Shown piece by piece: positions 3,306-64,000 of a DNA stretch of 64,000 bases. A model generated the notes under the pieces. The model was not told the origin of the DNA. It saw nothing but the letters and a program-made list of their open reading frames with translations, and searched no databases. The DNA is from an uncultured Planctomycetia bacterium (GTDB lineage Bacteria > Omnitrophota > Gorgyraeia > JABMRG01): the NCBI GenBank assembly GCA_964634945.1, contig CAZWMG010000001.1:116825-180824 (forward strand). Direction: 5' to 3'. Each line of letters starts with the position of its first letter. Position 1 is the stretch's first letter. The position numbers and the translations under genes are program-made.

Positions 3306-3334
3306 AAAGTATTTTTTATTCGTGTTTTTATTGT

Positions 3335-18811: not shown

Positions 18812-20176
18812 TTAGAAGTCGATTGTTGTAGCTGCTACTATCTGCGCTGCTGTCTTATCCTGTGAATTATCACCCTTTGAGTAGAAATCACCTGGCCAGA
18901 ATACTCCACCACACACTGTGAATGCTACATCTTCAGTATAGTCATATGCTAACTTAGCATCAAGTTCCATACCGATTGCATCGTCACCACCTGCAACAGG
19001 TGTTTCATCAAACCAGAAATAAGTATATCTTAGATTAACGTTTATATCAGTCATAGGATCTGCTGATACAAAACCAGCTAATGAGCTCTGGTTAGTTAAG
19101 CCATTATTATTTCCATTGGCGTTTGTACCATTTGCTATATCATAAGCGGTAACCTTTGATATGTTCCTAAAATCGCCTAGGTAATTATCAAACTTGCCGC
19201 GATATATAGGGTCCCATGCTTCCCACTTACCGTCACCTGTTGCATCTGCGTTGTTACCGGAAAGATAGAGAAACTCTCCACCAAGTACTGGTGTCCACTT
19301 AACATCAGCGAATGTATAATCACCACCAATGTTTAATGCATATGCTTCACGATCTTTACCTGCTGCAGGCTCGTTTCTGTAGTCACCAAACTGAACAGCG
19401 CCTTCAGCAAATAGGTTCATGGACTCAAAAGGAACTAAGCTTCCTCTTAAACCAATAGTGTGAACCTCATCAACAGATTTTGGACCTGTTCCTGCTGCAG
19501 TAGCAACTCTATCATGCTTAAAGATATAGTAAGCTTCTGCTTCAGCATCATACTTTGTGAAATCATAACCAACATTTGCTACATATAGATCTGTATCATC
19601 ATTGTTGTTAGTAGCATTAGCATTATTATCAGAATCTATCTTTGAATAGATCAAATCGATGGTCCATGGATCATAATCAAGAGTAGCTCTGATAGCATCA
19701 AATGCTGTCATGTCACTCATTTCTCTTACTGTCACTGGTAGACCGCCTTCATCCCATATTCTGATACCGGCATTACCAATAACCAAACCCTTACCAAGCC
19801 ACATGTTCTGGCGACCGATTTGCAGTGTTAAAGGAGCATATAACATCTCCTTCAATGTTACATAAGCCTCATCAAGCTTGATATCAAACTGGGCGCTTGC
19901 ACCACCATTACTATTTTCAGCATTCCAATCTCTCTCATTGATAAGACGGATGTATGTTGATACGTTGTCTGTTAGATCTGCTTCTACGTTCAAACCAACC
20001 TGATTGATAAAGAAATTCTGGTTATCGCTATCACTGTTTTCATAATCTATATCATTTTGATATATATATGCAACTTTGATATCACCAGAAACCTTTATGT
20101 TCTGTGTTTCAGCGAAGGCTGGAACTGCAAAAGCAACTAACAGCGCTGCTACGCATATTCCTGTTAAAAATCTCAT
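18812..20176 (-). CDS. outer-membrane beta-barrel (porin-like) protein
   Basis: Signal peptide (AFAVPAFAETQ), alternating amphipathic beta pattern, rich in Y/G/N/D, C-terminal ...TTIDF ending in Phe (OMP sorting signal). Confidence 0.5.
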   Translation of the reverse strand: MRFLTGICVAALLVAFAVPAFAETQNIKVSGDIKVAYIYQNDIDYENSDSDNQNFFINQVGLNVEADLTDNVSTYIRLINERDWNAENSNGGASAQFDIKLDEAYVTLKEMLYAPLTLQIGRQNMWLGKGLVIGNAGIRIWDEGGLPVTVREMSDMTAFDAIRATLDYDPWTIDLIYSKIDSDNNANATNNNDDTDLYVANVGYDFTKYDAEAEAYYIFKHDRVATAAGTGPKSVDEVHTIGLRGSLVPFESMNLFAEGAVQFGDYRNEPAAGKDREAYALNIGGDYTFADVKWTPVLGGEFLYLSGNNADATGDGKWEAWDPIYRGKFDNYLGDFRNISKVTAYDIANGTNANGNNNGLTNQSSLAGFVSADPMTDINVNLRYTYFWFDETPVAGGDDAIGMELDAKLAYDYTEDVAFTVCGGVFWPGDFYSKGDNSQDKTAAQIVAATTIDF

Positions 20177-22421: not shown

Positions 22422-22497
22422 TGGTGCCCCTACCGCGACTCGAACACGGCCACATGGTTTAGGAAACCACTGCTCTATCCATCTGAGCTATAGGGGC
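22422..22497 (-). tRNA. tRNA-Arg (anticodon CCU)
   Basis: Manual fold: acceptor GCCCCUA/UAGGGGC, D-stem GCUC/GAGC, anticodon stem GUGGU/ACCAU with loop UUCCUAA, T-arm CCGUG-UUCGAGU-CGCGG, discriminator A, encoded CCA. Confidence 0.85.
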
Positions 22498-32059: not shown

Positions 32060-32487
32060 ATCCTTTTTAATATCTCCTGCTCCTTTTTTCGCATCTTAAG
32101 CGCAGACCTAGAAGACGTATCATCATAGCCCAATAGATGCAATATGCCATGTATAATATAAAGTGACAATTCAATAAAAAAAGTATTTCCGTAACGTCTG
32201 GCATTCTCAAATGCTTCAGAGGGGCAAATTAAGATGTCGCCTAGATAGCCCTTGTGTATATCGCTGGTCATGGAATCATCATAGCCTAAGGCTATAACAT
32301 CCGTTACGCGATCCTTACAAAAATACCTGCTGTTTGCTTTTTTAATTCTGTATCTTGTAACAAAACTTAAAGCTACCTGTGTCTCTTCGGGCTGCCCAAG
32401 AGCTTGAAGCGCCTTAAAAGAGATAAGCTCGATCTTTTTTTTATTAAGCTTAATCTTTTTTTGAGCGTCTGTTATTATTATTCTCAT
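32050..32487 (-). CDS. ybeY: endoribonuclease YbeY
   Basis: HGILHLLGYDD (H-x3-H-x5-H zinc motif). Confidence 0.8.
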   Translation of the reverse strand: MRIIITDAQKKIKLNKKKIELISFKALQALGQPEETQVALSFVTRYRIKKANSRYFCKDRVTDVIALGYDDSMTSDIHKGYLGDILICPSEAFENARRYGNTFFIELSLYIIHGILHLLGYDDTSSRSALKMRKKEQEILKRICG

Positions 32488-34732
32488 ATTTTTTAAGCTT
32501 ACTATCAGGATACTCTATGCGTGAATGATAGGTAGCCGTAAGAACCCTTACAAAACTTTCGGCGATTTTATCAATATCTCTAAGCGTAAGATTGCATTCA
32601 TCAAGCTGACGATCGATAAATTTATTATTAACAATTTTCCGCACTAACTCCTTGAAATGTTGTGGTGTTGGATTCTGTAAAACACGCGAAGCGGCCTCCG
32701 CGGAATCCGCCAACATGACTATTGCCGATTCTTTCGTCTGCGGTTTGGGGCCGGCATATCTAAATGCCTCCTTACTGATAGATTCATCCTGACGCCTCTT
32801 TTCGAGCGCCTGATGATAAAAATACGTTACAACGCTGGCGCCATGGTGTTGTTGTATTATATCTTTTATGGAATTGCCTAGTTTATATTTCTCCGCAAGC
32901 TCAACACCATCTTTGACATGGTTAGTTATGACAAGCGAACTCATTGACGGAGAAAGTCCTTTATGCATATCCTTAAGTTCCTTCTTATTCTCAGCAAAAT
33001 ATTCTCCTTTTTCAATCTTACCGATATCATGGTAGTATGAGCTTATGCGGCAAAGGAGTGAGTTCGCGCCAATAGCATTTGCGGCGGTTTCAGCAAGGTT
33101 TCCAACAATTATACTATGGTGGTATGTGCCAGGAGCCTTGGTTACCATATCCCTTAATAAGGGGTGATTCAAATCAGCGAGTTCAAGCAATTTTATATCC
33201 GTAGTAAGCTTAAATAGATACTCCAACACAGGAAGAAATATCATTACAATCGCCGCTGAGACAATACCATTGGCGATACCCCACAGGCCTTGCTTTAGGA
33301 ATATATTAGGTTCAAAATTGGATATTATTCCTATGGCTGAGATAGCTATAAAATTAATTACCCCAACATAGAGCCCTGATCTTATAATATGGCTGCGTGA
33401 CCTCGCGTTAAAAATAGTACAGATTGCGAAGATGCCTCCAATCATGGAGACAAAGAATATGCTGAATTTTATACCAGCTATCAAGGTTACTATTACAGCG
33501 GCAACAACAACCACAATCGCCGCTACCCTACCATTTACAAGCAGCGTAATAAGCATAGAGACTACAGCAACAGGTATAAAATAACTAGGCAGTGGGGAAG
33601 AGACTATGAGACGCGCGGATAAGGCTACAAAGACTATCAACAAGCTCATCAATAACAAAAGCTTATCTTGTGAAAATATGCAACGCTCAAATTTTTTCAG
33701 ATAAATATATAGTATAAATATCAATAAACACATAAGAGTAACCATGCCCCAAAATTGGGAGAAGTTATCACTTGCGGCAGCCATAGTACTGACTACATCA
33801 ATCTGGGCAATGTGCTCTTTAGCGATCCTCTGTCCTCTTCTCACAACTATCTCGCCCTTCGACCTAGATTCTGTAATATAGATAGGCGTAACCGCGGAAA
33901 TGGCATCGCGTTTCGCGGAATTTGTCTCATCCTGGTTAAGCGCAAGGTTAGGTTTTACCCAATTCGAAATAAGCTTGTACAGGACATTTACCTGCTTTTT
34001 CCCTTGCATGCCATCGCTTAAGAGCAAAGGCTCTATCTTATCAAGTATGGACCCATCGGTACTTATGCTAGCTACCTTCTCATCACTCTTTTTTCTAGTA
34101 AGCCTATTGTATATTATAATATGTTCGCTTCCCTCTACGCGTAGAGCCTTTTTCATCTCTTGCGAAATAATAGGGTACGAATATATTGTCTGCAATGTCT
34201 CTAAGGCATATGACTGAAGTTTAGGCGTCTTACCTGACCCTAATAATATATCTGTCTCGTCCTTGTCAAGGTTTTCCTTAATCTTATTAAGCAACTGCTC
34301 CAGTTCGGCTGTATCATGTTCTTCTTCCGTAACAGATACCAGTTTTCTATAAGAGTCTAGGAGTATAAAAAATTCCTTTGCCTCTGACTCAGCGGATTTA
34401 AGCACCTTGTCATCAATGCTATATACAGGAATTATCTTAGCTTCAGCCGCGTCCTGATATGCCTTTGTCTTCTCTTCATCGACTCCTGATTGGTACTGAA
34501 AATCAAACGGGGCATATATATCCGCTACCGCGATATCGCCCTCATTAAGAGCTCTCCTGATAGGAAGTTTTGCGGAATACATAATACATATAATGATAAA
34601 GACGATAAAAACAGCGATCAGGACTCTTTTTATGGCCTTTGAAACCATCTGCTGTTTTTGCTGTTGTCCTGTATTTAATGAATTACCTAAATTTCTGATC
34701 CTAAATAATGCTTTTTTTATAAGTGGGGTCAT
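32450..34732 (-). CDS. pgpH: 7TM-HD (HDIG) membrane phosphohydrolase, PgpH/YqfF-like
   Basis: N-terminal extracellular region, 7 TM helices, C-terminal HD domain (HHSIIVGN...YHDIGK). Conserved pgpH-ybeY-dgkA order. Confidence 0.75.
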   Translation of the reverse strand: MTPLIKKALFRIRNLGNSLNTGQQQKQQMVSKAIKRVLIAVFIVFIIICIMYSAKLPIRRALNEGDIAVADIYAPFDFQYQSGVDEEKTKAYQDAAEAKIIPVYSIDDKVLKSAESEAKEFFILLDSYRKLVSVTEEEHDTAELEQLLNKIKENLDKDETDILLGSGKTPKLQSYALETLQTIYSYPIISQEMKKALRVEGSEHIIIYNRLTRKKSDEKVASISTDGSILDKIEPLLLSDGMQGKKQVNVLYKLISNWVKPNLALNQDETNSAKRDAISAVTPIYITESRSKGEIVVRRGQRIAKEHIAQIDVVSTMAAASDNFSQFWGMVTLMCLLIFILYIYLKKFERCIFSQDKLLLLMSLLIVFVALSARLIVSSPLPSYFIPVAVVSMLITLLVNGRVAAIVVVVAAVIVTLIAGIKFSIFFVSMIGGIFAICTIFNARSRSHIIRSGLYVGVINFIAISAIGIISNFEPNIFLKQGLWGIANGIVSAAIVMIFLPVLEYLFKLTTDIKLLELADLNHPLLRDMVTKAPGTYHHSIIVGNLAETAANAIGANSLLCRISSYYHDIGKIEKGEYFAENKKELKDMHKGLSPSMSSLVITNHVKDGVELAEKYKLGNSIKDIIQQHHGASVVTYFYHQALEKRRQDESISKEAFRYAGPKPQTKESAIVMLADSAEAASRVLQNPTPQHFKELVRKIVNNKFIDRQLDECNLTLRDIDKIAESFVRVLTATYHSRIEYPDSKLKKYENNNNRRSKKD

Positions 34733-49855: not shown

Positions 49856-50434
49856 CTATTTACCCGCTTCATCAGACAAAGCACGGGCAGATAGAAACTG
49901 CTTTTTTACTCTCACCCGTGTAAAGAAAAATATTACCAGTAAAAGATAAAGTAAAGAGCTTATTCTTACAATTAGAGCTGTCTGATACAACTTCTTATAT
50001 ACTAATGCGGCATACTCTTCTTCTGTAAGATCATTATCCAGCCTCAACTGTTCAGGAATAGCTGTATAGCCGGCCCATATCCTCTCTTGTGAATCAGGTG
50101 CTGTCCTCATATATTCTATAGATTTATTACTTAACGGTATAGAGATTAGAGCCATATAGAGCAATTGTATAACTGTAAGGAGCAAGACCAGTCTTCTTGC
50201 CCAATCTCTTAGCCTGAACATGTTTACCGAACCTATTATAAATGAAATATTGCTAATTATTGAATAGACTATAATAAGAATAAGGGCCGCTCGCGGCAAG
50301 ATCTGAGAAAAACCAGCCTGTATGCTACCTGTTCCTAAAAGCCTAAATATACTTATGATTAGTATGGATAACGCAAAAAATACAACGCCTGCGGACCTTC
50401 CTTTGCGTCTAATCTTTAATTCTTCGTTATTCAT
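49856..50434 (-). CDS. hypothetical 4-TM membrane protein
   Basis: Four hydrophobic helices and no known motifs. 6 nt upstream of lgt. Confidence 0.35.
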   Translation of the reverse strand: MNNEELKIRRKGRSAGVVFFALSILIISIFRLLGTGSIQAGFSQILPRAALILIIVYSIISNISFIIGSVNMFRLRDWARRLVLLLTVIQLLYMALISIPLSNKSIEYMRTAPDSQERIWAGYTAIPEQLRLDNDLTEEEYAALVYKKLYQTALIVRISSLLYLLLVIFFFTRVRVKKQFLSARALSDEAGK

Positions 50435-50558: not shown

Positions 50559-50948
50559 TTAATAGGCCTTATCCGCTATCTTATCGATAAGATCCCTGTC
50601 TCTTTTTTTTATCTTTTCGAACTGCGTTGCTATAAAACATATCTTCGGATAGGAATCTTTTTGTGGTTTCTTATTGCGGATTACCCTGCCGATACATCTT
50701 ATCGTATGCGCGGAAAAAGGAAATATAATTTTAAAATTAACCCGCATACCTGTTGTTAAATCATCATCGTAAGTAAATAACATGCCGCCGGCGCTGAGGT
50801 TACGCACTGTTACTATATCCCACTTACTAAAACATCTCCTGATGAAAACAAAGCTTACAGTCCTAAACCATGACATAAAACTTCTCTCTATCCTCCTATG
50901 TTTTCTCTTCTCCTCCATGACATACCCCCCCTTCGGTTGAATATCCAT
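50559..50948 (-). CDS. PilZ domain c-di-GMP receptor
   Basis: RRIER (RxxxR) and NLSAGG (NxSxxG). 129 aa. Start codon 21 nt downstream of the giant-gene stop. Confidence 0.6.
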   Translation of the reverse strand: MDIQPKGGYVMEEKRKHRRIERSFMSWFRTVSFVFIRRCFSKWDIVTVRNLSAGGMLFTYDDDLTTGMRVNFKIIFPFSAHTIRCIGRVIRNKKPQKDSYPKICFIATQFEKIKKRDRDLIDKIADKAY

Positions 50949-50968: not shown

Positions 50969-53900
50969 TTACGCGTTCTGTGCAACGAGATCATTTATTC
51001 TCTTAATCTCATCATTGTCTATAGGCTTAATCCTTATTGTCCCTGAGCCTGAATTCCCAAACATTGATTCCCAGTTTTCATTCGATATACCAATTTCAAT
51101 ACCTCTCTCGTTCATAAACGCGGCAAGTTGTTTAAATGGCACGCGGAATATTGCCAATACTACCTGTGATGCTGTCACTATATTATTTGCCGTACCAGCA
51201 GATTGTTCAACCTGTACGAATCTTGTCTGATCAGCGGTAATGGATGCAGGCTTATTGTAACGATAGACAATAGTAGCAGTACTTGCTTTCTTGAGGCCGG
51301 TTGTTACTGTTATGCCGTGCTCCTTAAGTTTACTTACTGCCTGGGCACTATTATCGCCATATACTGATATAGATACAGTCTCCTTTACATTATTAGGCAT
51401 CTTATTTATTATAACACCTAATGTCTCAGCAAGCATATCTGTAACTGTATCTGATTCCAGTACAAGAGCCTGTCCTGCTGTTATAGGCAGCTTGTAACCT
51501 TGTGTAGTAACTGTGTTAACAATATTTACCGCTGTTTGCGCTGTATCAAGGCCAAATTCCGAAACGTCAATAATGATGCCGGCAGACGCGCTCTTTGAAT
51601 CCGACACAGGCTCTGAACCGGTCTGTGTATATGATAGGCCCTTTTCAATGAGGCCTGAAGAAGACTGTTTCAATATATCTGGCGATGGCTTCTCTTCCGG
51701 ACTAATCTTAGGAGCATCGGTCGTTGTTGTTTGAGATACCGGTTCCTTACTACCTGATGTAGCCGCTGGCTGCTGTGCGTCTTCTCCCTGCTCTTTGCCT
51801 GCAGCAACATCTAATGCCTCGATATATGCCTGCATTATGAAATTATTCATATTAATTAGCTGAACGGATAAAGGCACATCTCTAACAAACTGCTTTTGTT
51901 TTAGCACCCCTTCTTTTTTGAGCCTTAATACCTCTCTCTGCGCTACAGGCTCAGCTTTTGCTCTTGCCGCTGCCTGCTGTGTTGATTGCGCCTTAGCATC
52001 CTCTAATCCATCTTCTACTGGTAAATCCTTTAATGCTGCTTCATAAGCCTTGCTAACCTTTTCTGCGGCTTTTGATAACTTAATGAACCTATTGAAAGCC
52101 CCATCAACTGCTTTTGGATTACCTTGGCTTGTTTTGTCTAATAATCCTGCGGCTACAAGCTGTGGCACAATAGCCTGTCTTGCTTTAATAGATGCCTTAT
52201 GCTCTTTCATATCGTAGCTTGGTTTTATGTTAAGAATATCTGAGAGCAGAGATGTAATCGCTGTTCTCATTTGCTCAGGACTATACTTATACTCACCTTT
52301 TACATCTTTTATACCATTTGCGATCTTCTCCTGACTATTTTTAAGGGTCTCTACAGCTTCCTTATATTCATCAGAAGCATTACCTGAGACTGCCTGATCT
52401 TCAAACTGCTCTATGGACTGCTCAACAACCTCCTCAATTATCTCATCAAAGGTCTTTCTGGTTCTAATGCCTTCTTCATTCACGTTAGTAAATGTATTTA
52501 ATCTGTATGCGTAATGGCCTTTGGCACCGCCCATCGAGTTAACGGTCTTTTCTCTTAAATAATCTACAGTCTCAAGGAACTCAGGGCTATCGTATAATAT
52601 CTTTGACATAAGCCCATCTACAATTATCTTATTCTTTATTTCATCCGCTAAATCTTTAGACAGAGAAGTAGTGAGCCATGATATCTCATCATTAAAATGT
52701 GAAAGTTCATGCAGCATCTGCTCCAGTATTAGCCAGCCGGATGCAATCTTACCGCTGGTTGCATCATGGTCTATCGCTGCTTTTGCGAATTTTATAAAGT
52801 CTCTTGATAGAGCTATTGTTGGCCGCGCTACTATGTTGCCTTCTTCGCTAAATATTACTACGCGCTCTGCCTGAGCCTTTTCAGCTACTGAACCGCCTGC
52901 TGTCTTCTTAACCATTCTAACCACAACACCATCCGGAGAGCCATTCTTAGCTGCATCCATTAGCACATCAAATAACTGTGTAAGCTCTTCACCGTTGCCT
53001 TTTTTTGATAAGTAATCTTTTATACTATCCATAGAACTGAAGGCAACATTTAATGCGTTAATAAGCTCCTTTATATCTCTTCTTGCTGAATTAGAAGATA
53101 TTGTCAGCTTATCACCTGCCCACTTTACTAGCACAGAATCAGTTGCTGTCTGCGCAAAGTCCCTGTAGACCTTTTGGACCTCTTCATAAAATCCTGATTT
53201 CATATCCAGGTTAGCGAGATGTTTTTTCATAAACTCATCTATATAAGCATCCTGGTTGTTAACCTTGTCCAATTTTATATCATGATACAACTCTGTTAGA
53301 TTAGCCTCAATATCCGCTTCATTAGCGCTTGAACTTCTTGCCTTTAAGAAACTTGTAATCCTAGCGTTTATATCTTTAACATTCAGATTGTGTATACTAA
53401 TATATGCTTTAGCATAAGAGGTTGCCGCTTCATTAAGTTCCTGATTCTTCTTCAGTAGGGGTTCCACAATCAATTCTAGTTGTTTATTGAGCTTTAATAT
53501 TTTAGCCTTTATTACCATGGATCTCTTCTTATCAACATCATCATCTAAATCAAGGGCCTGCAACTCTTCTTCTAGTGACTTCTTCTCTCTCTTAATGCGG
53601 TATATCTTTGACGCAAACAACAAGCGCTCTCTTTTTTTCTCAAGTTTTGTCTTTGCTCTTGCGTACTTAAGCGTTGCATTTGCCATGTCAAATAATTGGT
53701 CATTATCCGCGAAGGCATAGCTATCTTCTGTAAGCATCCTTGTATTATCAATATCCTGGGCAAATTCAATAGATATCGCTGCCTTTATCGCCAGATGAGT
53801 CATAACATCATCTCCCGCTATATCGCTTACCATTATGTCTATCTTCTCATCGGAGGGCTTTGCGACCTTAAACATTATTTGTTTAGCTCTAAATCTGTTC

Positions 53901-56900
53901 TTGAGCATACGTAGAGTCTTTTTAAGCTCCTTCTTCTTAGACTCTTTCTTCTGCTCCGCTATCCTATACTGCGTGATTGCTATGCGTTCCTCTAAATCAT
54001 CTATAGCGACCTTTCTTCTTAAATATTTAAGGAACTTTTCATTGCTCTTTATATCGCCTTTGTTATACGCAATTACCAATGCCTTTGCGAATTCTCGCCT
54101 TGCTGCTAAAGGTTCTTCTGTATTTAACAATGCCTTCTTAAGGTTTGTTTGAGTAAATTCTAAGCCCGGGAACTTTTTCTTCAAAGCATTATACTCTTTA
54201 GCAATCTCATATAAGCCATTAGCGTCAAAATCTTTTAAGGAGTTGCTTGTTCCTATTAGGCCTATTACGGATACTGCAATAGAGGCCTCAGAATCATCCT
54301 TTATGCTGCGGTCGTTATCCTTAAGCATCTTAACTATCTGCTGAAACTCTTCCGGCGGAAGCGCCATCTTAAGAGATATAATTTTTATAGCTACCTCAAG
54401 CACCATCATGCCTCTTACTGTAAGATTGTTATCATTATCCACCATATCGTTATCTCTCATAAATCTTACTAATTGCCCAACTGCAGCATTAGCATCTACG
54501 CTAGCATTAACAGTCCCTTCACCTTTCGCGCTCTCTATATCATCCTGAGCATCTTTTATAGCTGTTTTAAGAGCGATCTCAACCTCATCTACTGTAAGTG
54601 TTCTTTCCTCAACATCTTCATCCTGTGCTTCCAGAGTTCTTGCTGTACGTGCCTGGGCAGCTGTCAGGGTCTGCCTAAACGCTCCGGCAACATCGCCTGA
54701 GAACGATGGCAGTACATAAGGGATAAATCTTCTTGCGGCATTATAAAGCTCTGAATACGTTTCAGCATCCTTAAATGTACTCTCATATGCCTGCCCGGAC
54801 GACTTTCTCAGTATCACACCCTCGTATTCCGATAACAATGGCTTTAGTTCTCTTTCGACAATCCTTATTGATTCTGCTGTCTTAACAGATTCCATATCCT
54901 CCATAAGAGACTTTATAAATTCGACCCCAATGCTTGCGTTAGTATTGAATATCTCAGTTATCAGGGCCTCTGCATCCATAGGCTTATCCAATAGGTCGAG
55001 TGCCGCACTGCGCTGATCAGACTGCTTATCAAGTAGCTTAAGCAGATGCTTCTCAAGGACCTTTCCTTCTGATGTTTGCGCAGTCTCCGGGTTTTCGCTT
55101 CCGTATTTTCTAAGTAGATTTTTAGCTGCCTCAACAAGATAACCTTGGGCAACATCTGTTATAATGTAGGCATTTGATTTTGACATTTGTATAGCGCCTA
55201 CAACCTTAAGCATAAGCTGGGTAGCGGACTGAAAATCATTCTCAATAAACCCATCTATATCATCCTTAGAAGACGCGAACTTATCCAGAAGAGTCTTTGT
55301 ATTCTTAAATTCATCATTCTGCCTGTACTGTTCCGGTGATATCATATTGCTTAACTGAGTAAGGTTGCCCCTTAAGTACTCAAGGCGCTTTTTAAGAGAT
55401 TCTTTATTTACATAGATTACTCTTGTCGCTATATCTGATTCTGAACGTTGCACACGATAGAGCCCCTGTAGTAACAGATCTTCCGCAAGCTCATCAGCAA
55501 CTATATGTATATCAACATCACCGTTATAGTTTAATCCTATCAGGCCACCTTCATTTATGAATACAGCGTGTCCTCTTTGAGCCTGTTTTGCTATCTCATT
55601 TACATCGCCATCCTCATTAGATGCTACTATGTTATTCTCATCTTTCACAATGTATTTAACAATATCTTTATCCAGCCTATTCTGATCAGCGCCTAGGGCT
55701 TCTATCAGATCTTTTATGTTCTCTTCCTTTCGTTTCATGTTTGGATCATTCTTATCAAGTTTTTCTATCACAGAATTCTGCTCATCTATAATGCGTTGCA
55801 GCTTTTTATATATAGCATCTCTTAATCTCTTTCTTAATATGTCATCCCCCTTAATACGTCTTTCAAGCTCTTCCTGAGTACGCTTTCTCATATCTTCGTT
55901 AGCTGTATATATCGCGACACCACCTTGAGTGCGAAGCGACTCTATAGCACCGCTTACAATCTGGGCAATCAATACTTTTTCATCAGCATATTTACAAAGC
56001 ATATGGCTAGGATGTATCCTACCAAAAGTCTTATTATCTATCTCTAACTCTCTATATTCGCTCATTTTTTCATTTGCACTAGCTATCGCGCCTGGAAGCG
56101 CGGAATCATCAACACCGACAAGGTCAATCATCTTATAAACTATATCATTTCCATCACTATCTTTCGTAAATACCGGTATCTCAGAGCGCTCGAAATCAAT
56201 CTCAATTCCTGTTACCGCAGGAAGCATAGCAATTACCTCAAAGAACGTTCCTGAGCCGCCGGCAACATGCGCTCTTGAATTCATACCAAATATCTCGCGC
56301 AAAGTTGACTGCATGTTTGTCGCGTTGTAGGTAAGGCCTGTTACTAAGATCTCTTCATTATCTGTTATCTGCCTGTGTAGTTCTGCTATAGCACTATCGT
56401 CATCTGTATCATTTATGTATTTATTATGCTGTAATGCTATTGCTATAACATAACCCATATCCTGAAACATAGATGAATACTTTGCCCTGCCTTGCCCAAC
56501 AGGTACAATCTTCTTATCAGCTGTTACAAGGTAATCCTGCCCAATACGATGGTTGAGAGCCCTTAACACGCTCTCAACCTCAGACAGTTTAATGCCTTCC
56601 TTGGTAAGCTCGTTCTGAAGTTCTCTTGACGCATAAACAGCATCAAACTCTCTGTCATAGCATACCGCCATACCTGTATTCCTGTAGTTGCTTTTAAATA
56701 ACTCGACATCTCCTTTTAAATCTCTTATATTTAACTTCTTACCTTTCTTTGTCTCTAACACGCCTCCTTTAAATATCTTAAATATTTTCTCGATAGCCTC
56801 TAATTTCTCAGCTGTAACCTCTTTTTCAGCAAGACCACCTTCAATAAATGTATCTCGAACTTTCAGCACGCTATCAAATTCATCAATCCTTAAGATGTTT

Positions 56901-59900
56901 GTCTTAGCAACAGCGTTAAACAACTCATCATTTTCCGCATGCGCTATAGTATTCTGTAAATGGCCTCTTGCTTCACGGCTTATTATCACTACCTGATTAG
57001 GATCATTAAACGCCTCTGTTACCTTCTTATACGCGGCCCTCTTTCCTGCTTTTCCTTCTGCGGATGCATTTTTGAAATCATCTATCAGCTTGTCGCCGCT
57101 TACCATCTTAAGGCCAAAACCATGCAACAAGGTATATTGTGAATGCTCTAAGCCTTTATTTCCATCATCCTTATCAGATAGTGGATTTAAATACTTATCA
57201 ACTGCCTGCGGGCTTTCTAATATCACCATGCCAGCGAGATCGTTGCCTTTTATCAGACTCTCTATACACATCTCTGCTGCAAAAGCATATGTTTTACCGC
57301 CTGCCATTGATAAAGCACCGAATTTTCCTTCAAATAGACTCTTGATAAACTTCTGTTGCTTTGCACGTAATCCGATCTCCTTGTTGCTTAACGCTGACTC
57401 TCTGGCAGCAAGTAAATTAGCGATAGCAAGTCCAAATGCCAGCGCCTGAACATCATCAGTCGCGTGTTCTGTTTCATCTAGTTCAAGACAAGCTTCTTCA
57501 ACCTCATTTCTATTGCCTTTTATATCTGTCTTTGTTATTGTCACGCTTAGGCCTGTTGCGATATCTTTTACGCGATCAACAAAAGCCTTATACGCATCTC
57601 CTGAGCCCTCTGTAAGATTTTCGTATTCAACCTGTTTTTCATTCAGCTCAGACCTTCTCTCATTGATCTGATTCTGCAAAGTTGCAGCTTCTTTCTCTTT
57701 CGCCTTTTGCAGTGTCTTATTGCCATCGTTCCTTGCGCTTATTATCTCTTTTTGCAATTCATCAAAACTGGCAGTTAATTCGCTTATACCCTTTGCCATG
57801 TCTGCCATCTGATCTTTGAACAATACTATCTTCACTCTTGACTCACTATGTTTGCTGTCTGCTACATCAAGCAATTCCATTGCGCCGGAGGCTTCTTTCT
57901 GCACTGCATTCACAATAGCCTCTCCTGCTTTTTCCACAAAATCGTTCTGCTCCGGTGTTAAGGTTCTTGTTAGCTCAAGTTTTCTCAGCATCTGTTTTAT
58001 GAACTTGTTGTTAAATTGCTGATAGAATCTTCTCTTTTCAATTATCGTTTTCTGCTCATCTTCATTATTGGTTAGGCCTGCTACTATATAATCAAAGTCA
58101 TCCTGTCCGGATTCTGTATGTATCATTGCCTCGTAAAGGGCCTGACGTAGTATGTTCTTAACATAGGTATCTAATCTGGCAAAATCGAGGAATGAATCGA
58201 GCGCTGAATTTATATTAATATCATTTGCAGGCGAGGCTGCCTGAACAGCTGCTGCATTATCTATTATAGACTTCAGTATGGCTGATGTAGCTCTTGGATT
58301 ATTTTTGATAACCTGCACATATTCTTCAAATGACTCAAGCTCTAGCTCCTTCTTGGTTTCGCCATTAGCTTTAAAGCTATCTACCAATAGCCTGCTAGCT
58401 CTAGCAACGATCTCTTGTGTCTCTTCTTCAATTTGCGTAACTGTTTCCAGAGCCTGTTTTGAAGCTATCTCTGAGTCAACGTCTTTTAATGTACCGCTTA
58501 ATAACGCTTGCTCCAACATGTCTATACGATCAAGCGCATCAGAATCAACAAGCGATTTAAGATCTTTCTTATTCAATACGATCTCTTCAGTGAGCTGTTT
58601 TAACTCAACCAGAGACGCTAACCCGCCAAATTCAATCTCTGCTGTGTCTAAATTGATCTTTGATATCTTTTCTACCGCAATATCCGCAGCTTGCACTATA
58701 TTTTTGACAGATTCAGCTAAAGATGCCCTGGCTGCGTTATGCTTAATATCTTTTGCTGCCTTTGCTACGTTACCTATGACACCGGCTGCTGAAGTCGCGA
58801 AACGCGCATTGTACTGTGGAGATAGCTCAACATCTTGGCCGCTATCCTCTACAGAGGTAGTCATGTTTAAAGTGGTATTCGCGAATATGCTTCTTAAGCC
58901 TGTGCGCGTATTATCGATATCTACTTTTAGTGTCTTTATGTCTGATGCTGATGCATCGAGCTTCTGCTTCATTTGAGGCAAGGCCTGCTCTAATGTTGAT
59001 AATGCTAGCTCCATCTTTGCAGCAGCGTCAACCAGTTCTATTTGCTGCGCCTTAGTTGCTGTCTGTGAGTCTATAGCTTTTGCCTGAGCCGCAACCTGTT
59101 TAACAGCAACCTTTACCATGCCCACTGTTCTTGCCTGCGTAAGCTCGCCTGCAAAGGTCTCCTGAGCAGCATAATCCTCATATACACCTGCTATGCTTTT
59201 CTTTGATGCCTTATTAATAGATTCACACAGCTTTGTAATATTATTAGCCACCCTGGTAGCGCTATCTGTAAACTGCTTAACTGAAACACCAACTGATTTA
59301 CCATCAAGCACATCTGAAATCTCAACTACAAACTCCTGCAAACCTTCAGGCATCCAACTTAAAAACAATCTTGCCAGTATGACCTCTTTTATTGCCTCTT
59401 CATATATGCCGCCTACTATTCTACTTGAAAAGCCTCCCAATTTTCCCAACATAGTTGCTTCTGGTGCCTCAGCCAAATAAGCAAGCTTACCCTGTATAAA
59501 GCTTGATACAGCGCTAAATGATTTCGCGATAATCCTGCCTATGGTCTGAGGTAACCTAACTAGTGTTAGAAAAGTAATGGCATTAAGCGCGCCGTTAAGA
59601 AAGCTTCCGCCACTTATCGCACTTTTAAGAGTGGAATCTGCTGTGATACTAAACTTCATTGCCCAAGATGAACTTGTCCTTGCTGCAACATCCTTAAATG
59701 GGCCTGATACTCTATTTGATGTAAAGTTCGCTATCCTATGACCCAGTGCAACTAGGGCAGGGGAAAGAGCAGTAAATACCGCTGTAAAGAGTATTCTTTG
59801 CGGATTCAGGTTTTCAGCTAAGGCGTTAAGCACCGAACCTTTACCCATCTGTCGCATCGTTCCATAGATGGTTTTTAAGGCACCTGGCCTCATATTGGCT

Positions 59901-62900
59901 ACAAAATCATCTGTTATGCCAAACGTGTTAAGCCCAGCGCTTGCCATTGAACCTGCTAAATGTAATGATATGCTCATGCCATATGTCAGGTTCCAGACAG
60001 TAGCTATACCATGTTTGTACATATGTTTTGCCCATTTAGTTGAAAGGCTTGCGACTACTTTTGATGCCGCAATCAGCCTCTGAGAGGCTGCAGCCATTAT
60101 GCCTTCACCGGCAGCTGCCTTTGTTACTGCAGAAGCTACCTTTGTTGATGCTGTAGTTATCTTTGAGCCAACATAGGTAAGTGGTTTTGCCGCTATATTG
60201 AGGATTTTTGCAACAGCCTCAATAGACTTAATGCTACCAATTGTACGAGCTATAGAGGTAGTAGCTTTTAGCGCTATGTTTAAAACAGATTTAATGCCTC
60301 TTAATATGATCCCTCCCGCAGCAAGAAGCGCTATATCAATTAACATCTCTGCTCCTGCCAATGTATACTTGTAAGTGCTATCATTTTGTATCTTATACAT
60401 ATCATCTATGCTCGTTACAGTAAAATCTACATCAAAACTTTCTCCGTTAAGCAACGAAGCAACTGAGGCAGCAACATAGCCAATAGCAGAACCAAGATGA
60501 TATACTGCCCAGGAAACAGCAGCGCCCATCCTATATGCGAATAAGGCGCCTTCGCTAGCTGAATCCAATACGGATTGCTGGCCTGTACTAATATCGATAG
60601 ATGTCATCTGATATATAGTTTCGTTATTACCTGTAATATGCTGATACCAGTACTTTGTCTCTATGCTTAGACGTAATATGGATGTATCGGCATCATAACT
60701 GATATTGGCATTATCCTGGCCACTTGTAATAATAAAGCTATCATCAGATGTTCTTGTTGCTGTAACAAGCTCCTGATTGCCCTGCATATCAGTTAAAGTC
60801 TGCGAAGCTGTTATAAGCACGCCATCTCTTATATATGTGTAGCTCTTTAGCATTCCTGACGAGGTTATAACGCCGGTTGACGATGAAACAGAATTTACAG
60901 TTACGTTAATAATATCATTAGGTATAGCAATATCTGCCTGCATAGCAACGTCACCGGTTGTTTCGCCTGATGATGAATATGTTGTAACCGCAATATTCTC
61001 ATCTATGTACATACCAAGAACATCTGCTTGTTCCAGTAACTGCAACGCATTCATACCACTTAATAGTTCTGTGCTGACCTTATCTATTTGATCCTGTCTA
61101 TCTTGTCCTGTTAGCATGCAATCATAAGTAGCATCAACATATACTTCCGCAATTGTCCTTTGAAGAGCAGGGACTATTGTAGCGCTATCTTTCTCGTTGA
61201 GCTCTCCTATTGTCAAACCTAGCGCACTTAAAGTCACGTTAGGTGTGCTTAGATTTATTGATAGTCTATACTCTTTGCCAGTATATGTAAAATCTGTTAT
61301 CTTAATTGTGTGCCCACCACTAAGAACTGATAGTGCCATTAGGCTATCAGGGCTATCTGATATGAAGTTTATAGTTACGCTCAAACCATCCTTATCAGAG
61401 ACAATACCCGCACCTTTTTCTCTTGCTGTCTGGAATTGAATATTATATGATACTTCTGAGTTCTGTATATTATTCAGATACTTGCCAAAACCATCTTGCA
61501 TATTTTGCTTCTTTGCATCGATGCGTGCCTTACAATCCGCTATCTGATCTTTATCATAAAAGTCGCTATCTATCAGGGTCACCATCTGCAATAAGCCTTT
61601 GATCTCATCTGTTAAGGCATCGACTTCCGCTTCTAAATTCTCTAAAAATATTTGATTCATACATGCGGCGATTTTATAGGCTGACCAGAGACCTTTATCC
61701 TCCGCATTAACTTTATTATTAGCTAATGATTCGCTTACAAATTCATAAGGATTGTCAGGATCATCCGTAAACCAGCTACCGATTCCTTTTTGAGATTCAT
61801 ACTCTTCAAAAAGTTTTGTAGAAGCATTAACCAGGCTCTGCATATAAACGCTAAGCTTTGCAAGCTGGGCCGGATTCATATCAGCCAAACCTTGGCCATT
61901 TTCAATATCAATAAGCCCCTGTTCTGTAAGCGTATTAAGAAAAGCGTTTATGTCGCTTTCATCAAGCTTGCCCTGCGCAATACCACCTGCAAGAAGAGCG
62001 AATAAAGCGCCTATTGTTCCTGATATCTTCTGATCTGCGGGATTGCAAAGTATAGGCATCACAACAAAGCTCTGCTCATATTTCTCTGAATCCTTGTCTG
62101 TGGTATTTTTATATTTATCTATAGTCGCTAAAATCTCCACCTTTTCTTGTGCATAAGCGGCTCTCTGGGCATCTGATAGCTCATCTGAATCTGCTCCCAT
62201 AAGCCAGTCCTCCTTAACCATTAAATCAACTTCTATCTGCGAGAGCCTATCCTCAAGTTTTTCTATTAGCACACTATATGGTATGATTTTAGAAGAATCC
62301 ACTGCCTGAACAGCTATCAGATCGTTATCGCCATCTTTACCATACATGATAGTCGTTGAAAGCTCGATAAGCATCGTTATCAGCTTCTTAGCAGATGCTG
62401 ATATATTGATGTCATTGAGATACTCTTGAAGCTTCTGTTTTGACACAAACGTAATGATAGTTTTTGTAGCTTTATTGTAGCCGAGAACAAAATCTGATAG
62501 TGACATGCTTTCATTATGCCACTGCTGTAATGTTATTTTAGCCCCTTGATAAGATATTTCAGAGGTAACATCCAGGTTATCTTTTACAATAAATATCTTA
62601 TTTGTATTTTCATTATATCCGGTGCCTAATCCTATTGAGATATCTCCATCTTTCATCTCTATCTGCGTAACACCCGCTGATAATACGTAACCACCTGATT
62701 TCAAATCTTCGGCAAGTACAAATCTTCCTTGCTTATTAAGCTCTATTGTGAGGCTAGATAAATTATCTGCAAAATTAACCTCTTTTCCGTCAAATATAAC
62801 CTTAAGATTGTCTTTTGAATTCTTATCAAGCTTCGTCGTAAACAATATTCTCTTGCCTGTTGTTAGTGTTACATTAAATTCTCTGCCTGCAATCTTTGCG

Positions 62901-64000
62901 GTAAAGTTCATATTTTCTGCTATATTCAGCTTCTCTAATGGTGTAAAGTTTCCGTTATTATCCAGCACGCCTCGTTCAATATGTTTTTCGCTGTCAGGGC
63001 CGTTTATCTTTGACCTGACTACCAAGCTGTCACCACCCTCTAGTGTTGACTTGACATTAATCATCTCAAGGAATACATGCATTTTTGAATCATCACTAGT
63101 AATAATATTAATCGCTCCATCAATATCCGCGTCCCAGGATACATGTTGCACCATGCCTGAGTCATTCTTAAAAGTAAGTGAGCCAGACCTAAACTCTACG
63201 CCGCCTGCTATGCTCATCTTCATGCCCTGCCCGAATAAGCTAATCTGGCCAGTTGAAATATCTAGCTTAAACTTAAGTATTGTTGCCTCGCCTGACTCCT
63301 TATCTATATACGCACCGATACGCAGGCTTCCATCAGATAGCTTATTTATAACATGGAATTGTGAGTTTATATCTTTTGCGTTAAGATCCTTACTGCCACC
63401 TTCTACCTTGGGAACATATGTAAACTCCGCTTCTTTACCAAACTGGGCGTATATACCGGTATCATCTATTACAAATTTACCTTCTACGCCATTCAATTTT
63501 AGAGTACACTCGGCTATCTTTAAAATATCCGCTTGGTCTATTGTCTGGAACGTACCATTTTCAGTTATTGTTATATGAACTGTTATATCCTGTCCGTTCA
63601 CATCTAATTCTAATGAGTCATCAGAACCAAGGAATTGTGAAATTATCTTCTGGCTTGTAAGTTTTGTATCGTAGCTAATCTGGCCAAGTCCGGTAGGCTT
63701 GAAGCCGTCCTTTGTCCAGCTTACACTTGTGGTTTTAGTGGATTTTGAATTGTCAAAGGTGTATTTATCATATGTTACAACACAGCCTGCGGCGATACTC
63801 ATGTTCATGCCCTGGCCAAACAGAGTTATTACTCCACCGGATAATATATCAAGCTTGAACTTTAACGTTCCGCTAGCTGAGGCGCCTATTAGGGTTACAC
63901 CGTCTTTTGTGCTTGATATTGCCTTGAATTCAGAGCTTATAACTTTCGCATTATCCGGAGTGCCGCCTTTTGTCTCTTTATACCATAGCTTCGCTTCCGG
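50969..64000 (-). CDS. giant multidomain protein, >4,343 aa, N-terminus beyond window. N-terminal beta-rich repeats, hydrophobic Ala/Ser-rich segment, coiled coils, embedded SecA-like DEAD motor, distinct C-terminal domain
   Basis: Track ORF 50969..63808 (4279 aa). I extended the frame by hand to position 64000 without a stop (64 further codons, PEAKLWYKETKGG...), so the 5' end is off-window. Internal motifs are described in findings. Confidence 0.8.
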   Translation of the reverse strand, partial: PEAKLWYKETKGGTPDNAKVISSEFKAISSTKDGVTLIGASASGTLKFKLDILSGGVITLFGQGMNMSIAAGCVVTYDKYTFDNSKSTKTTSVSWTKDGFKPTGLGQISYDTKLTSQKIISQFLGSDDSLELDVNGQDITVHITITENGTFQTIDQADILKIAECTLKLNGVEGKFVIDDTGIYAQFGKEAEFTYVPKVEGGSKDLNAKDINSQFHVINKLSDGSLRIGAYIDKESGEATILKFKLDISTGQISLFGQGMKMSIAGGVEFRSGSLTFKNDSGMVQHVSWDADIDGAINIITSDDSKMHVFLEMINVKSTLEGGDSLVVRSKINGPDSEKHIERGVLDNNGNFTPLEKLNIAENMNFTAKIAGREFNVTLTTGKRILFTTKLDKNSKDNLKVIFDGKEVNFADNLSSLTIELNKQGRFVLAEDLKSGGYVLSAGVTQIEMKDGDISIGLGTGYNENTNKIFIVKDNLDVTSEISYQGAKITLQQWHNESMSLSDFVLGYNKATKTIITFVSKQKLQEYLNDINISASAKKLITMLIELSTTIMYGKDGDNDLIAVQAVDSSKIIPYSVLIEKLEDRLSQIEVDLMVKEDWLMGADSDELSDAQRAAYAQEKVEILATIDKYKNTTDKDSEKYEQSFVVMPILCNPADQKISGTIGALFALLAGGIAQGKLDESDINAFLNTLTEQGLIDIENGQGLADMNPAQLAKLSVYMQSLVNASTKLFEEYESQKGIGSWFTDDPDNPYEFVSESLANNKVNAEDKGLWSAYKIAACMNQIFLENLEAEVDALTDEIKGLLQMVTLIDSDFYDKDQIADCKARIDAKKQNMQDGFGKYLNNIQNSEVSYNIQFQTAREKGAGIVSDKDGLSVTINFISDSPDSLMALSVLSGGHTIKITDFTYTGKEYRLSINLSTPNVTLSALGLTIGELNEKDSATIVPALQRTIAEVYVDATYDCMLTGQDRQDQIDKVSTELLSGMNALQLLEQADVLGMYIDENIAVTTYSSSGETTGDVAMQADIAIPNDIINVTVNSVSSSTGVITSSGMLKSYTYIRDGVLITASQTLTDMQGNQELVTATRTSDDSFIITSGQDNANISYDADTSILRLSIETKYWYQHITGNNETIYQMTSIDISTGQQSVLDSASEGALFAYRMGAAVSWAVYHLGSAIGYVAASVASLLNGESFDVDFTVTSIDDMYKIQNDSTYKYTLAGAEMLIDIALLAAGGIILRGIKSVLNIALKATTSIARTIGSIKSIEAVAKILNIAAKPLTYVGSKITTASTKVASAVTKAAAGEGIMAAASQRLIAASKVVASLSTKWAKHMYKHGIATVWNLTYGMSISLHLAGSMASAGLNTFGITDDFVANMRPGALKTIYGTMRQMGKGSVLNALAENLNPQRILFTAVFTALSPALVALGHRIANFTSNRVSGPFKDVAARTSSSWAMKFSITADSTLKSAISGGSFLNGALNAITFLTLVRLPQTIGRIIAKSFSAVSSFIQGKLAYLAEAPEATMLGKLGGFSSRIVGGIYEEAIKEVILARLFLSWMPEGLQEFVVEISDVLDGKSVGVSVKQFTDSATRVANNITKLCESINKASKKSIAGVYEDYAAQETFAGELTQARTVGMVKVAVKQVAAQAKAIDSQTATKAQQIELVDAAAKMELALSTLEQALPQMKQKLDASASDIKTLKVDIDNTRTGLRSIFANTTLNMTTSVEDSGQDVELSPQYNARFATSAAGVIGNVAKAAKDIKHNAARASLAESVKNIVQAADIAVEKISKINLDTAEIEFGGLASLVELKQLTEEIVLNKKDLKSLVDSDALDRIDMLEQALLSGTLKDVDSEIASKQALETVTQIEEETQEIVARASRLLVDSFKANGETKKELELESFEEYVQVIKNNPRATSAILKSIIDNAAAVQAASPANDININSALDSFLDFARLDTYVKNILRQALYEAMIHTESGQDDFDYIVAGLTNNEDEQKTIIEKRRFYQQFNNKFIKQMLRKLELTRTLTPEQNDFVEKAGEAIVNAVQKEASGAMELLDVADSKHSESRVKIVLFKDQMADMAKGISELTASFDELQKEIISARNDGNKTLQKAKEKEAATLQNQINERRSELNEKQVEYENLTEGSGDAYKAFVDRVKDIATGLSVTITKTDIKGNRNEVEEACLELDETEHATDDVQALAFGLAIANLLAARESALSNKEIGLRAKQQKFIKSLFEGKFGALSMAGGKTYAFAAEMCIESLIKGNDLAGMVILESPQAVDKYLNPLSDKDDGNKGLEHSQYTLLHGFGLKMVSGDKLIDDFKNASAEGKAGKRAAYKKVTEAFNDPNQVVIISREARGHLQNTIAHAENDELFNAVAKTNILRIDEFDSVLKVRDTFIEGGLAEKEVTAEKLEAIEKIFKIFKGGVLETKKGKKLNIRDLKGDVELFKSNYRNTGMAVCYDREFDAVYASRELQNELTKEGIKLSEVESVLRALNHRIGQDYLVTADKKIVPVGQGRAKYSSMFQDMGYVIAIALQHNKYINDTDDDSAIAELHRQITDNEEILVTGLTYNATNMQSTLREIFGMNSRAHVAGGSGTFFEVIAMLPAVTGIEIDFERSEIPVFTKDSDGNDIVYKMIDLVGVDDSALPGAIASANEKMSEYRELEIDNKTFGRIHPSHMLCKYADEKVLIAQIVSGAIESLRTQGGVAIYTANEDMRKRTQEELERRIKGDDILRKRLRDAIYKKLQRIIDEQNSVIEKLDKNDPNMKRKEENIKDLIEALGADQNRLDKDIVKYIVKDENNIVASNEDGDVNEIAKQAQRGHAVFINEGGLIGLNYNGDVDIHIVADELAEDLLLQGLYRVQRSESDIATRVIYVNKESLKKRLEYLRGNLTQLSNMISPEQYRQNDEFKNTKTLLDKFASSKDDIDGFIENDFQSATQLMLKVVGAIQMSKSNAYIITDVAQGYLVEAAKNLLRKYGSENPETAQTSEGKVLEKHLLKLLDKQSDQRSAALDLLDKPMDAEALITEIFNTNASIGVEFIKSLMEDMESVKTAESIRIVERELKPLLSEYEGVILRKSSGQAYESTFKDAETYSELYNAARRFIPYVLPSFSGDVAGAFRQTLTAAQARTARTLEAQDEDVEERTLTVDEVEIALKTAIKDAQDDIESAKGEGTVNASVDANAAVGQLVRFMRDNDMVDNDNNLTVRGMMVLEVAIKIISLKMALPPEEFQQIVKMLKDNDRSIKDDSEASIAVSVIGLIGTSNSLKDFDANGLYEIAKEYNALKKKFPGLEFTQTNLKKALLNTEEPLAARREFAKALVIAYNKGDIKSNEKFLKYLRRKVAIDDLEERIAITQYRIAEQKKESKKKELKKTLRMLKNRFRAKQIMFKVAKPSDEKIDIMVSDIAGDDVMTHLAIKAAISIEFAQDIDNTRMLTEDSYAFADNDQLFDMANATLKYARAKTKLEKKRERLLFASKIYRIKREKKSLEEELQALDLDDDVDKKRSMVIKAKILKLNKQLELIVEPLLKKNQELNEAATSYAKAYISIHNLNVKDINARITSFLKARSSSANEADIEANLTELYHDIKLDKVNNQDAYIDEFMKKHLANLDMKSGFYEEVQKVYRDFAQTATDSVLVKWAGDKLTISSNSARRDIKELINALNVAFSSMDSIKDYLSKKGNGEELTQLFDVLMDAAKNGSPDGVVVRMVKKTAGGSVAEKAQAERVVIFSEEGNIVARPTIALSRDFIKFAKAAIDHDATSGKIASGWLILEQMLHELSHFNDEISWLTTSLSKDLADEIKNKIIVDGLMSKILYDSPEFLETVDYLREKTVNSMGGAKGHYAYRLNTFTNVNEEGIRTRKTFDEIIEEVVEQSIEQFEDQAVSGNASDEYKEAVETLKNSQEKIANGIKDVKGEYKYSPEQMRTAITSLLSDILNIKPSYDMKEHKASIKARQAIVPQLVAAGLLDKTSQGNPKAVDGAFNRFIKLSKAAEKVSKAYEAALKDLPVEDGLEDAKAQSTQQAAARAKAEPVAQREVLRLKKEGVLKQKQFVRDVPLSVQLINMNNFIMQAYIEALDVAAGKEQGEDAQQPAATSGSKEPVSQTTTTDAPKISPEEKPSPDILKQSSSGLIEKGLSYTQTGSEPVSDSKSASAGIIIDVSEFGLDTAQTAVNIVNTVTTQGYKLPITAGQALVLESDTVTDMLAETLGVIINKMPNNVKETVSISVYGDNSAQAVSKLKEHGITVTTGLKKASTATIVYRYNKPASITADQTRFVQVEQSAGTANNIVTASQVVLAIFRVPFKQLAAFMNERGIEIGISNENWESMFGNSGSGTIRIKPIDNDEIKRINDLVAQNA

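Follow-up and report, generated by a model that had tools for sequence, protein, structure and literature searches.

At one end of a 64,000-nucleotide stretch of contig CAZWMG010000001.1 (assembly GCA_964634945.1; the window throughout) lies the 3' part of a giant gene, whose product comprises, in order, beta-rich repeats, a hydrophobic block, a linker, a superfamily 2 (SF2) ATPase of two RecA-like domains, a conserved region, a module with an HExxH…E motif, a linker rich in Ser, Thr and Pro, and a C-terminal domain (Table 1). Translation of the minus strand from 50969 to 64000 yields 4,343 sense codons and a single terminal stop, with the frame still open at base 64000; an earlier note, made from the letters alone, had described exactly this, a single open reading frame (ORF) of more than 13 kb that runs off the window edge without an internal stop. 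Given the base composition of the strand (stop frequency 0.071 per codon), a stop-free run of 4,343 codons is expected by chance with a probability of about 1e-139. The ORF list counts 4,279 aa, taking the first ATG (63808) as the start, and the 64 codons upstream of it (63809-64000), which the earlier note had read by hand as open, are indeed so and belong to the first of the beta-rich repeats. The GC content of the giant gene (0.403) equals that of the remainder of the window (0.404), its nucleotide sequence holds one trivial tandem repeat and none of any size, and the ORFs antisense to it gave no Pfam match. As judged by sequence comparison, the gene is real, native, and intact.

A reading frame of such length calls for caution about the assembly. 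The source is of the metagenome type, giant ORFs are classic sites of misassembly, and the one internal repeat of the protein could in principle mislead an assembler, with the result of a chimeric fusion of several genes or a collapsed repeat. Set against this are stop-free, colinear ORFs in independent assemblies, of more than 6,757 aa (JGI 3300009941), more than 7,016 aa (JGI 3300077567) and more than 5,858 aa (ENA ERZ24794666), one of these assemblies with identical flanking genes; the two repeat copies, moreover, are only 37% identical in protein, with no notable tandem repeat at the nucleotide level and uniform GC. We attach next to no probability to an artefact of this kind. The protein from the first of these assemblies (P0002) is colinear with aa 125-4343 of the window protein at 36% identity, and its contig (L085) presents the giant gene, PilZ, a 183-aa ORF, Lgt, GroES, GroEL, a tetratricopeptide repeat (TPR)-peptidase, IMPDH and DnaE in the order of the window. 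The reading frame is one gene under selection: its counterpart in this sister organism matches it colinearly for 4,200 residues and has the same neighbours in the same order. The independent ortholog shows neither the frameshifts nor the chimeric joins for which the earlier note had advised a check, and the synteny with pilZ and lgt that it had proposed to examine is conserved; its view of the gene as native and not recently acquired is borne out by the GC content of the neighbours and by the conserved gene order. Between window and P0002 contig the identity is 91% for GroEL and for IMPDH, 80% for DnaE, 46% for PilZ and 36% for the giant protein, which, compared with the 80-91% of GroEL, IMPDH and DnaE, marks the giant gene as a fast-evolving ortholog.

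The 5' end of the gene lies outside the window. From colinearity with P0002, at least about 2,400-2,500 residues are missing upstream, and the full protein probably has at least about 7,000 aa. The close relatives are likewise cut at the N-terminus, and therefore bound the length from below rather than fix it: the P0002 ORF (>6,757 aa) is open to contig base 1, where YD-like repeats continue, and P0001 (>7,016 aa; JGI 3300077567) begins at contig base 2. The gene call of P0003 (contig L087, ENA ERZ24794666) starts just after a run of N (~1490-1590), with the frame open from base 2; as the frame is open through the N-gap to the contig end, the deposited protein of 5,328 aa is an artificially shortened call of an ORF of more than 5,858 aa. 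The N-terminal 400 aa of the window protein, searched for the upstream sequence, matched nothing in the genome or metagenome contig collections.

Table 1. Features of the giant gene and of the adjoining pilZ gene (window positions; residues counted in the window protein)
Feature	Position	Strand	Residues (aa)	Remarks
Giant gene, 3' part	50969..64000	-		stop codon 50969-50971; 5' end outside window; colinear ortholog P0002
Beta-rich repeat copy 1	63482..63967	-	12-173	37% identity to copy 2
Beta-rich repeat copy 2	62879..63400	-	201-374	one homologous copy in P0002
Hydrophobic Ala/Ser/Gly/Thr-rich block, putative membrane anchor	59525..60520	-	1161-1492	from hydropathy; homologous blocks in P0003, P0004
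Anchor-to-motor linker, poorly conserved	57461..59503	-	1500-2180	K/E-rich in parts
Divergent SecA-like SF2 (DEAD-type) ATPase motor	55121..57460	-	2181-2960	highest conservation within the protein
Motif I / Walker A, MAGGKTYAF	57281..57307	-	2232-2240	G-K-T invariant in 15 sequences
Motif II / Walker B, RIDEFDSV	56867..56890	-	2371-2378	followed by LKVRDTFIEGG; paired by hhalign with SecA IDEVDSVLVDEARTPLIISG
K/E-rich long helical hairpin	55649..55897	-	2702-2784	inserted in second RecA-like domain; AlphaFold2 model
Conserved post-motor region, no recognisable family	53234..55120	-	2961-3589	from ortholog alignment
Conserved module with invariant HExxH…E motif	52121..53233	-	3590-3960	motif at 52631-52711
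S/T/P-rich linker	51677..51760	-	4081-4108	
Conserved C-terminal domain	50972..51583	-	4140-4343	ends …IRIKPIDNDEIKRINDLVAQNA; common to P0001, P0002, P0003
pilZ	50559..50948	-		directly 3' of giant gene; PF07238 PilZ, E = 4.7e-9

The family is best seen from its motor. Exhaustive HMMER search of 1.84 billion representative proteins with aa 2181-2960 as query returned 18 relatives, all of them huge proteins or fragments and almost all singletons. The closest over the motor are P0001 (7,016 aa, 61% identity), P0002 (6,691 aa, 58%) and P0003 (5,328 aa, 43%); the remainder, 388-7,348 aa long, show 24-31% identity by BLAST (28-44% by HMMER). Where the source is named, the relatives are mostly hypothetical proteins of Candidatus Omnitrophica/Omnitrophota (P0004 and P0018 among them), and one is labelled Chlamydiota. 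Family-based and shortcut searches saw none of this. The whole protein and ten overlapping tiles of 600 aa gave nothing significant in Pfam or NCBIfam, and neither the whole protein nor the motor drew a phmmer match from the PDB sequences, even at E up to 10. A word-indexed protein search with the motor and with the 15-sequence motor alignment reported no match, though members of that alignment are in the searched collection; having missed proteins 60% identical to the query in its own collection, this search gives negatives for giant proteins that cannot be trusted.

In the alignment of 15 motor sequences the G-K-T of motif I and the D-E of motif II are invariant, and motifs III ([GA]S[GA]T), V (NExG..G..Y) and VI (Q..GR..R) are conserved, a pattern that, as far as motifs can tell, is that of an active SF2 ATPase. 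Prediction by AlphaFold2 (AF2) from this alignment reached a mean local confidence (pLDDT) of 76 and a predicted template modelling score (pTM) of 0.66, compared to a pLDDT of 39 from the single sequence. The long hairpin of the second RecA-like domain (helices 522-566 and 575-604 of the model, an insert of ~80 residues) is predicted at pLDDT ~85-93. When this model was compared by Foldseek with the PDB, ranks 1-20 were SecA or SecA2 throughout (E = 1.4e-10 to 8.9e-6, over ~760-900 columns), followed by DinG (E = 1.4e-5) and, below it, by more SecA, RapA, XPD and other helicases. Profile alignment with hhalign to a genuine SecA (locus L070) paired Walker A, Walker B and the SecA segment IDEVDSVLVDEARTPLIISG with RIDEFDSVLKVRDTFIEGG (E = 8.5e-5), the SecA signature in this comparison being DEvDSvL…IisG, and the sub-alignments run colinearly, in the same order as in SecA. 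Motifs II and III are separated by ~200 residues, placed where SecA has its preprotein-binding domain; in DEAD-box proteins about 30 residues lie between the two motifs. On the evidence of the structural model, the ATPase is SecA-like at the level of the fold while standing outside Pfam SecA_DEAD, and its closest solved structures are SecA, with the catalytic motifs I, II, III, V and VI kept. The SecA-like motor of the earlier note was thus well seen: it holds at fold level by AF2 and Foldseek, though Pfam, NCBIfam and PDB sequence searches do not detect it.

The same SF2 core could, in another reading, belong to a nucleic-acid helicase or translocase, with DNA or RNA as the substrate of the cytoplasmic tail, in the manner of the polyvalent giant proteins that mobile elements carry. 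In a search of the PDB the motor profile found only the Q-motif/Walker A of DDX18 (E = 4e-4). What speaks against a helicase is the hold of SecA on the top 20 Foldseek ranks over ~760-900 columns, the SecA-specific DExDSxL…I-x-G signature after motif II, and the ~200-residue insertion, colinear by hhalign with that of the SecA preprotein-binding domain. Pfam scans of the protein found no nucleic-acid-binding domain, the motor has no match in the phage and plasmid collections, and the gene is chromosomal and syntenic with a GC content equal to its neighbours. We regard the helicase reading as unlikely. A polyvalent protein of a mobile element was likewise rejected.

Downstream of the motor, conservation persists. 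Alignment with the window protein begins at aa 1512 for P0001 and at aa 1043 for P0003, and in either case runs to the final residue. By region, identity to the orthologs is 60-72% in the motor, 52-66% in aa 2800-3100 and 50-65% in the HExxH region, against 13-43% over the first 1,100 residues and the hydrophobic block. Within the HExxH module, none of H3764, E3765, H3768, E3787 and N3790 varies among four orthologs, and the HExxH-(18)-E spacing is gluzincin-like; a profile of the module matched nothing in Pfam or the PDB. The last ~200 residues are conserved up to the terminal one (…KP[IV][DN]…QNA/QAA), again with no Pfam match for the C-terminal domain. Both the S/T/P linker (from aa 4081) and the distinct C-terminal domain of the earlier note are present. 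In P0003 an extra stretch at ~aa 4890-4960 resembles by eye a GNAT acetyltransferase motif (…VAVDPAYQRKSGMGRLLMLEAL…); it lies between HExxH module and C-terminal domain, is absent from the window protein, and, if real, would mean modular variation of the cytoplasmic tail.

An invariant HExxH…E motif in a giant protein naturally raises the possibility of a polymorphic toxin of the Rhs/YD-repeat type, or of an RTX/MARTX adhesin-toxin, whose delivered toxic part would consist of the HExxH module together with the C-terminal domain. The far N-termini of the orthologs do resemble YD repeats by eye, and JGI has named P0001 a 'YD repeat-containing protein'. Pfam, however, returned no RHS, RTX or other match, either for the window protein or for the 6,700 residues scanned from the N-terminal parts of the orthologs; with seven distant relatives included, the scan gave one weak DEAD match only. 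Motif scanning of the protein found no Rhs core DPxGL, no RTX GGxGxD nonapeptides and no LPXTG, which disposes of the RTX/MARTX membership that the earlier note had wished to see checked. The HExxH module is located ~2,300 residues past the membrane block and behind a motor requiring ATP; since it is C-terminal of both, the topology suggested here would place it in the cytoplasm and outside any capsule of YD repeats. Polymorphic toxins have variable tips, whereas the orthologs all keep the C-terminal domain. A toxin is in our view very improbable.

Upstream of the motor the protein is less constrained. The two beta-rich repeats share 37% identity across 177 columns (E = 1e-17), in agreement with the ~180-aa repeats of the earlier note. 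The hydrophobic Ala/Ser/Gly/Thr block, likewise anticipated, is found at aa ~1160-1500, and in most relatives a hydrophobic block is N-terminal of the motor; in P0001 the homologous block has more than 10 strong hydrophobic segments by Kyte-Doolittle hydropathy. The several transmembrane-like helices that the earlier note had seen in the window protein's block are plausible from the same measure. K/E-rich stretches are present as well, in the form of about eleven 100-aa windows with K+E of 20-26% that are scattered over aa 1800-4000.

Directly downstream of the giant gene, on the same strand, follow pilZ, a 192-aa ORF, lgt, groES, groEL, a TPR-peptidase MA gene, an IMPDH-family gene, dnaE, hisS and aspS, and the window genes further along are housekeeping genes too. 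The stop codon of the giant gene and pilZ are 20-47 nt apart, and the two are probably co-transcribed; the true start of pilZ is probably, to judge from the strong AAGGGGGGG ribosome-binding site ahead of it, the ATG at 50921 and not the first ATG (50948) of the ORF list. By exact look-up in the contig collection, neither start variant (129-aa and 120-aa products) is on record. In contigs L085 (that of P0002) and L086 (that of P0001), too, pilZ stands directly 3' of the giant gene. The 192-aa ORF between pilZ and lgt (49856-50434, minus strand) has no Pfam match; as its 47% identical counterpart, the 183-aa gene, holds the equivalent position in L085, it is a conserved gene that accompanies pilZ and the giant gene. 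In 80 other genomes, ~10 of Omnitrophota included, the 10 kb around groEL held no homolog of the giant gene, and the synteny is for that reason considered to be confined to the close sister lineage. GroEL itself has its best matches, among 185,579 species genomes, in Candidatus Omnitrophota (79% to chromosome CP070655.1, 75-77% to several others). From these identities, the host is understood as an Omnitrophota bacterium lacking a close representative in that set, and the earlier note's guess at this phylum was right.

Some further observations concern the wider setting. GroEL sequences identical to that of the window occur on 2-4 kb Logan contigs of four runs (SRR31802795, SRR31802796, SRR31802791 and SRR24302418; L001-L004) which, on the strength of this identity, contain the same organism or a close strain. 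The distant motor relatives P0012, P0008 and P0020 (L088, 34077-42047; L089, 20298-27283; L090, 17245-23747) adjoin further very long ORFs, of 3,475, 2,533 and 7,622 aa, each running off the fetched locus; in L089 a Y1 transposase is found between the motor relative and the neighbouring long ORF. Giant genes cluster in these genomes. The window also encodes, all on the minus strand, an AddA/UvrD-type helicase-nuclease (5837-9004), an alginate-export-family outer-membrane protein (18812-20176), a 7TM-HD receptor of the PgpH type (32450-34732) and, as its sole tRNA, Arg-CCT (22422-22497).

The earlier note could match a giant protein with an embedded translocase-like motor to no described family. 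Such a class has, in fact, been described for Omnitrophota, tiny bacteria of predatory or episymbiotic habit, by West-Roberts et al. 2023 (bioRxiv 10.1101/2023.11.21.568195). Every giant gene of full length codes for many transmembrane (TM) regions, and most of the genes encode divergent SecA DEAD and preprotein-binding domains without the scaffold/wing domain, which form a long-branched clade apart from the organisms' own SecA. The TM anchors are near the C-terminus and the SecA-related domains come after them, N-terminal regions form Rhs-like beta-helices (tubes), and pilZ homologs are directly 3' of most giant genes. In the authors' proposal, each giant protein is exported by its own SecA-like domains, and the proteins serve in prey adhesion and cell-wall attack. 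A second survey, by Nielsen & Lui 2026 (bioRxiv 10.64898/2026.06.07.730766), collected at a threshold of 10 thousand amino acids (kaa) 916 long Omnitrophota proteins, of which 137 (15%) were Pfam-dark. We consider it likely that the window contains the last 4,343 residues of a native giant gene of Omnitrophota, belonging to the class of West-Roberts et al.; phylum, order of anchor and motor, extreme divergence, downstream pilZ and fast evolution all agree with its being a further member. Within the class, the gene is assigned from its sequence to a small Pfam-dark subfamily with a motor too diverged for PF07517.

Several observations weigh against the assignment and the SecA relationship that it draws on. 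The hhalign comparison with SecA has a probability of only 60%, and neither the sub-alignment to the preprotein-binding core and motif III (the region with …VVEDNRVMIVDENTGR…; E = 0.31) nor that to motifs V-VI and the start of the scaffold helix (E = 0.02-0.03) is significant alone. Pfam SecA_DEAD (PF07517) had no match in the whole protein or its tiles even at E up to 10, and is absent among the families matched by the 15 motor sequences (E up to 0.1); the generic DEAD family PF00270, matching 5 of the 15 weakly, is the sole Pfam family to appear. PF07517 does detect the SecA-like domains of the published giant proteins, and an upstream type II/IV secretion-like locus is reported for the class. 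Here the N-terminus, any signal peptide and any upstream type II secretion-like locus are outside the window, and they are cut off in the close orthologs as well. Compared with the 10 kaa of the 2026 survey, the window part has 4.3 kaa and the orthologs at least 5.9-7 kaa, all cut by contig ends. Lastly, from hydropathy alone, the block of the window protein has only two strongly hydrophobic segments (19-mers at Kyte-Doolittle >=1.6, at 1214-1232 and 1403-1421), with three more at 1.2-1.4.

Few known genes match the giant genes of Omnitrophota in length, and to our knowledge nobody has shown the export of such giant proteins or the role of their SecA-like domains. Assuming membership of the class, a mechanism of export and adhesion can be sketched, which we put forward tentatively and with somewhat more doubt than belief. 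The part upstream of the hydrophobic block, that is, the repeats of the window protein and the YD/Rhs-like repeats of its orthologs, would be displayed outside the cell and contact the surfaces of prey or host. The block itself would anchor the protein in the inner membrane, and the ~2,800 residues after it would lie in the cytoplasm, a placement suggested by the motor's need for ATP. Tethered by the protein's own anchor in place of the SecA scaffold/wing domain, the SecA-derived motor could push polypeptide across the membrane at the expense of ATP, its cargo being the giant protein's own extracellular part. As the motor is encoded after the part presumed to be exported, it could not aid its own chain during translation; the cargo would probably come from other copies, or be moved after translation. 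The HExxH module may process the polypeptide, and the PilZ protein may couple the system to cyclic di-GMP (c-di-GMP). Taken one step further, the conserved cytoplasmic tail could represent a complete machinery for export and processing, joined to the cargo that it moves and made up of motor, HExxH…E module, C-terminal domain and PilZ. In such an export route the translocase motor would itself belong to the substrate, work independently of free SecA and perhaps of SecYEG, and be switched by c-di-GMP. This extension we hold to be rather unlikely; if true, it would constitute a mode of secretion undescribed for any characterised system.

Lastly, the locus has importance beyond the single gene. 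It adds to the giant genes a small sequence-dark subfamily of four colinear members, two of them in a conserved chromosomal context, in which constraint is strongest on the cytoplasmic motor and on the HExxH module, and far looser on the part presumed to lie at the surface. The motor constitutes a compact construct of ~780 residues with intact catalytic motifs, well suited to a biochemical test of self-export. Pfam-based surveys undercount the SecA-like motors in these giant proteins, as the window motor shows: PF07517 does not see it, and it took exhaustive HMMER search with subsequent structure prediction to bring it to light.

Comparison with known systems places the protein more precisely. 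With Rhs/YD-repeat toxins and ABC toxin complexes it shares the YD-like repeats at the far N-termini of its orthologs, and differs from them in having no YD repeats within the window, no match to Pfam RHS (PF05593) even in the orthologs, no Rhs core motif, and a conserved C-terminus in place of a variable toxin tip. It differs from RTX/MARTX toxins and adhesins in lacking the GGxGxD motif and any Pfam match. A possible likeness to zincin (gluzincin) metallopeptidases would consist in the HExxH and downstream Glu, invariant in four orthologs, in a module with no Pfam or PDB profile match. SecA/SecA2 (PDB 3jv2, 1tf5, 3bxz, 2fsf and 4uaq) offers the best structural match, with two RecA-like domains, motifs I, II, III, V and VI, the DExDSxL…I-x-G signature after Walker B, and the insertion of ~200 residues between motifs II and III. 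Distinct from SecA are the ~10-14% sequence identity in the Foldseek alignments, the lack of a match to SecA_DEAD, SecA_PP_bind or SecA_SW (PF07517, PF01043 and PF07516 in the family set tested), and the extra ~80-residue hairpin in the second RecA domain; SecA is, furthermore, a free soluble protein of ~900 aa, whereas the window motor comes at residue ~2200 or beyond, inside a giant protein with a putative membrane anchor. From the Omnitrophota giant proteins (the Archaeovorin and Dockerin-type classes) the window protein departs in a motor too diverged for PF07517, in showing none of the class-defining enzyme, dockerin, TSP3 and C39 domains in the 4.3 kaa at hand, and in possessing both a module with an invariant HExxH…E and a C-terminal domain that is conserved, of which term searches and selected sections of the two papers gave no mention. 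It agrees with them in phylum and in the very long ORF set among housekeeping genes, in the putative TM block followed by a highly diverged SecA-like DEAD motor, in the pilZ gene directly downstream, in evolution faster than that of housekeeping genes, in the Rhs-like repeats of its relatives' N-terminal parts and, as for the Pfam-dark part of the 2026 survey, in having no Pfam content.

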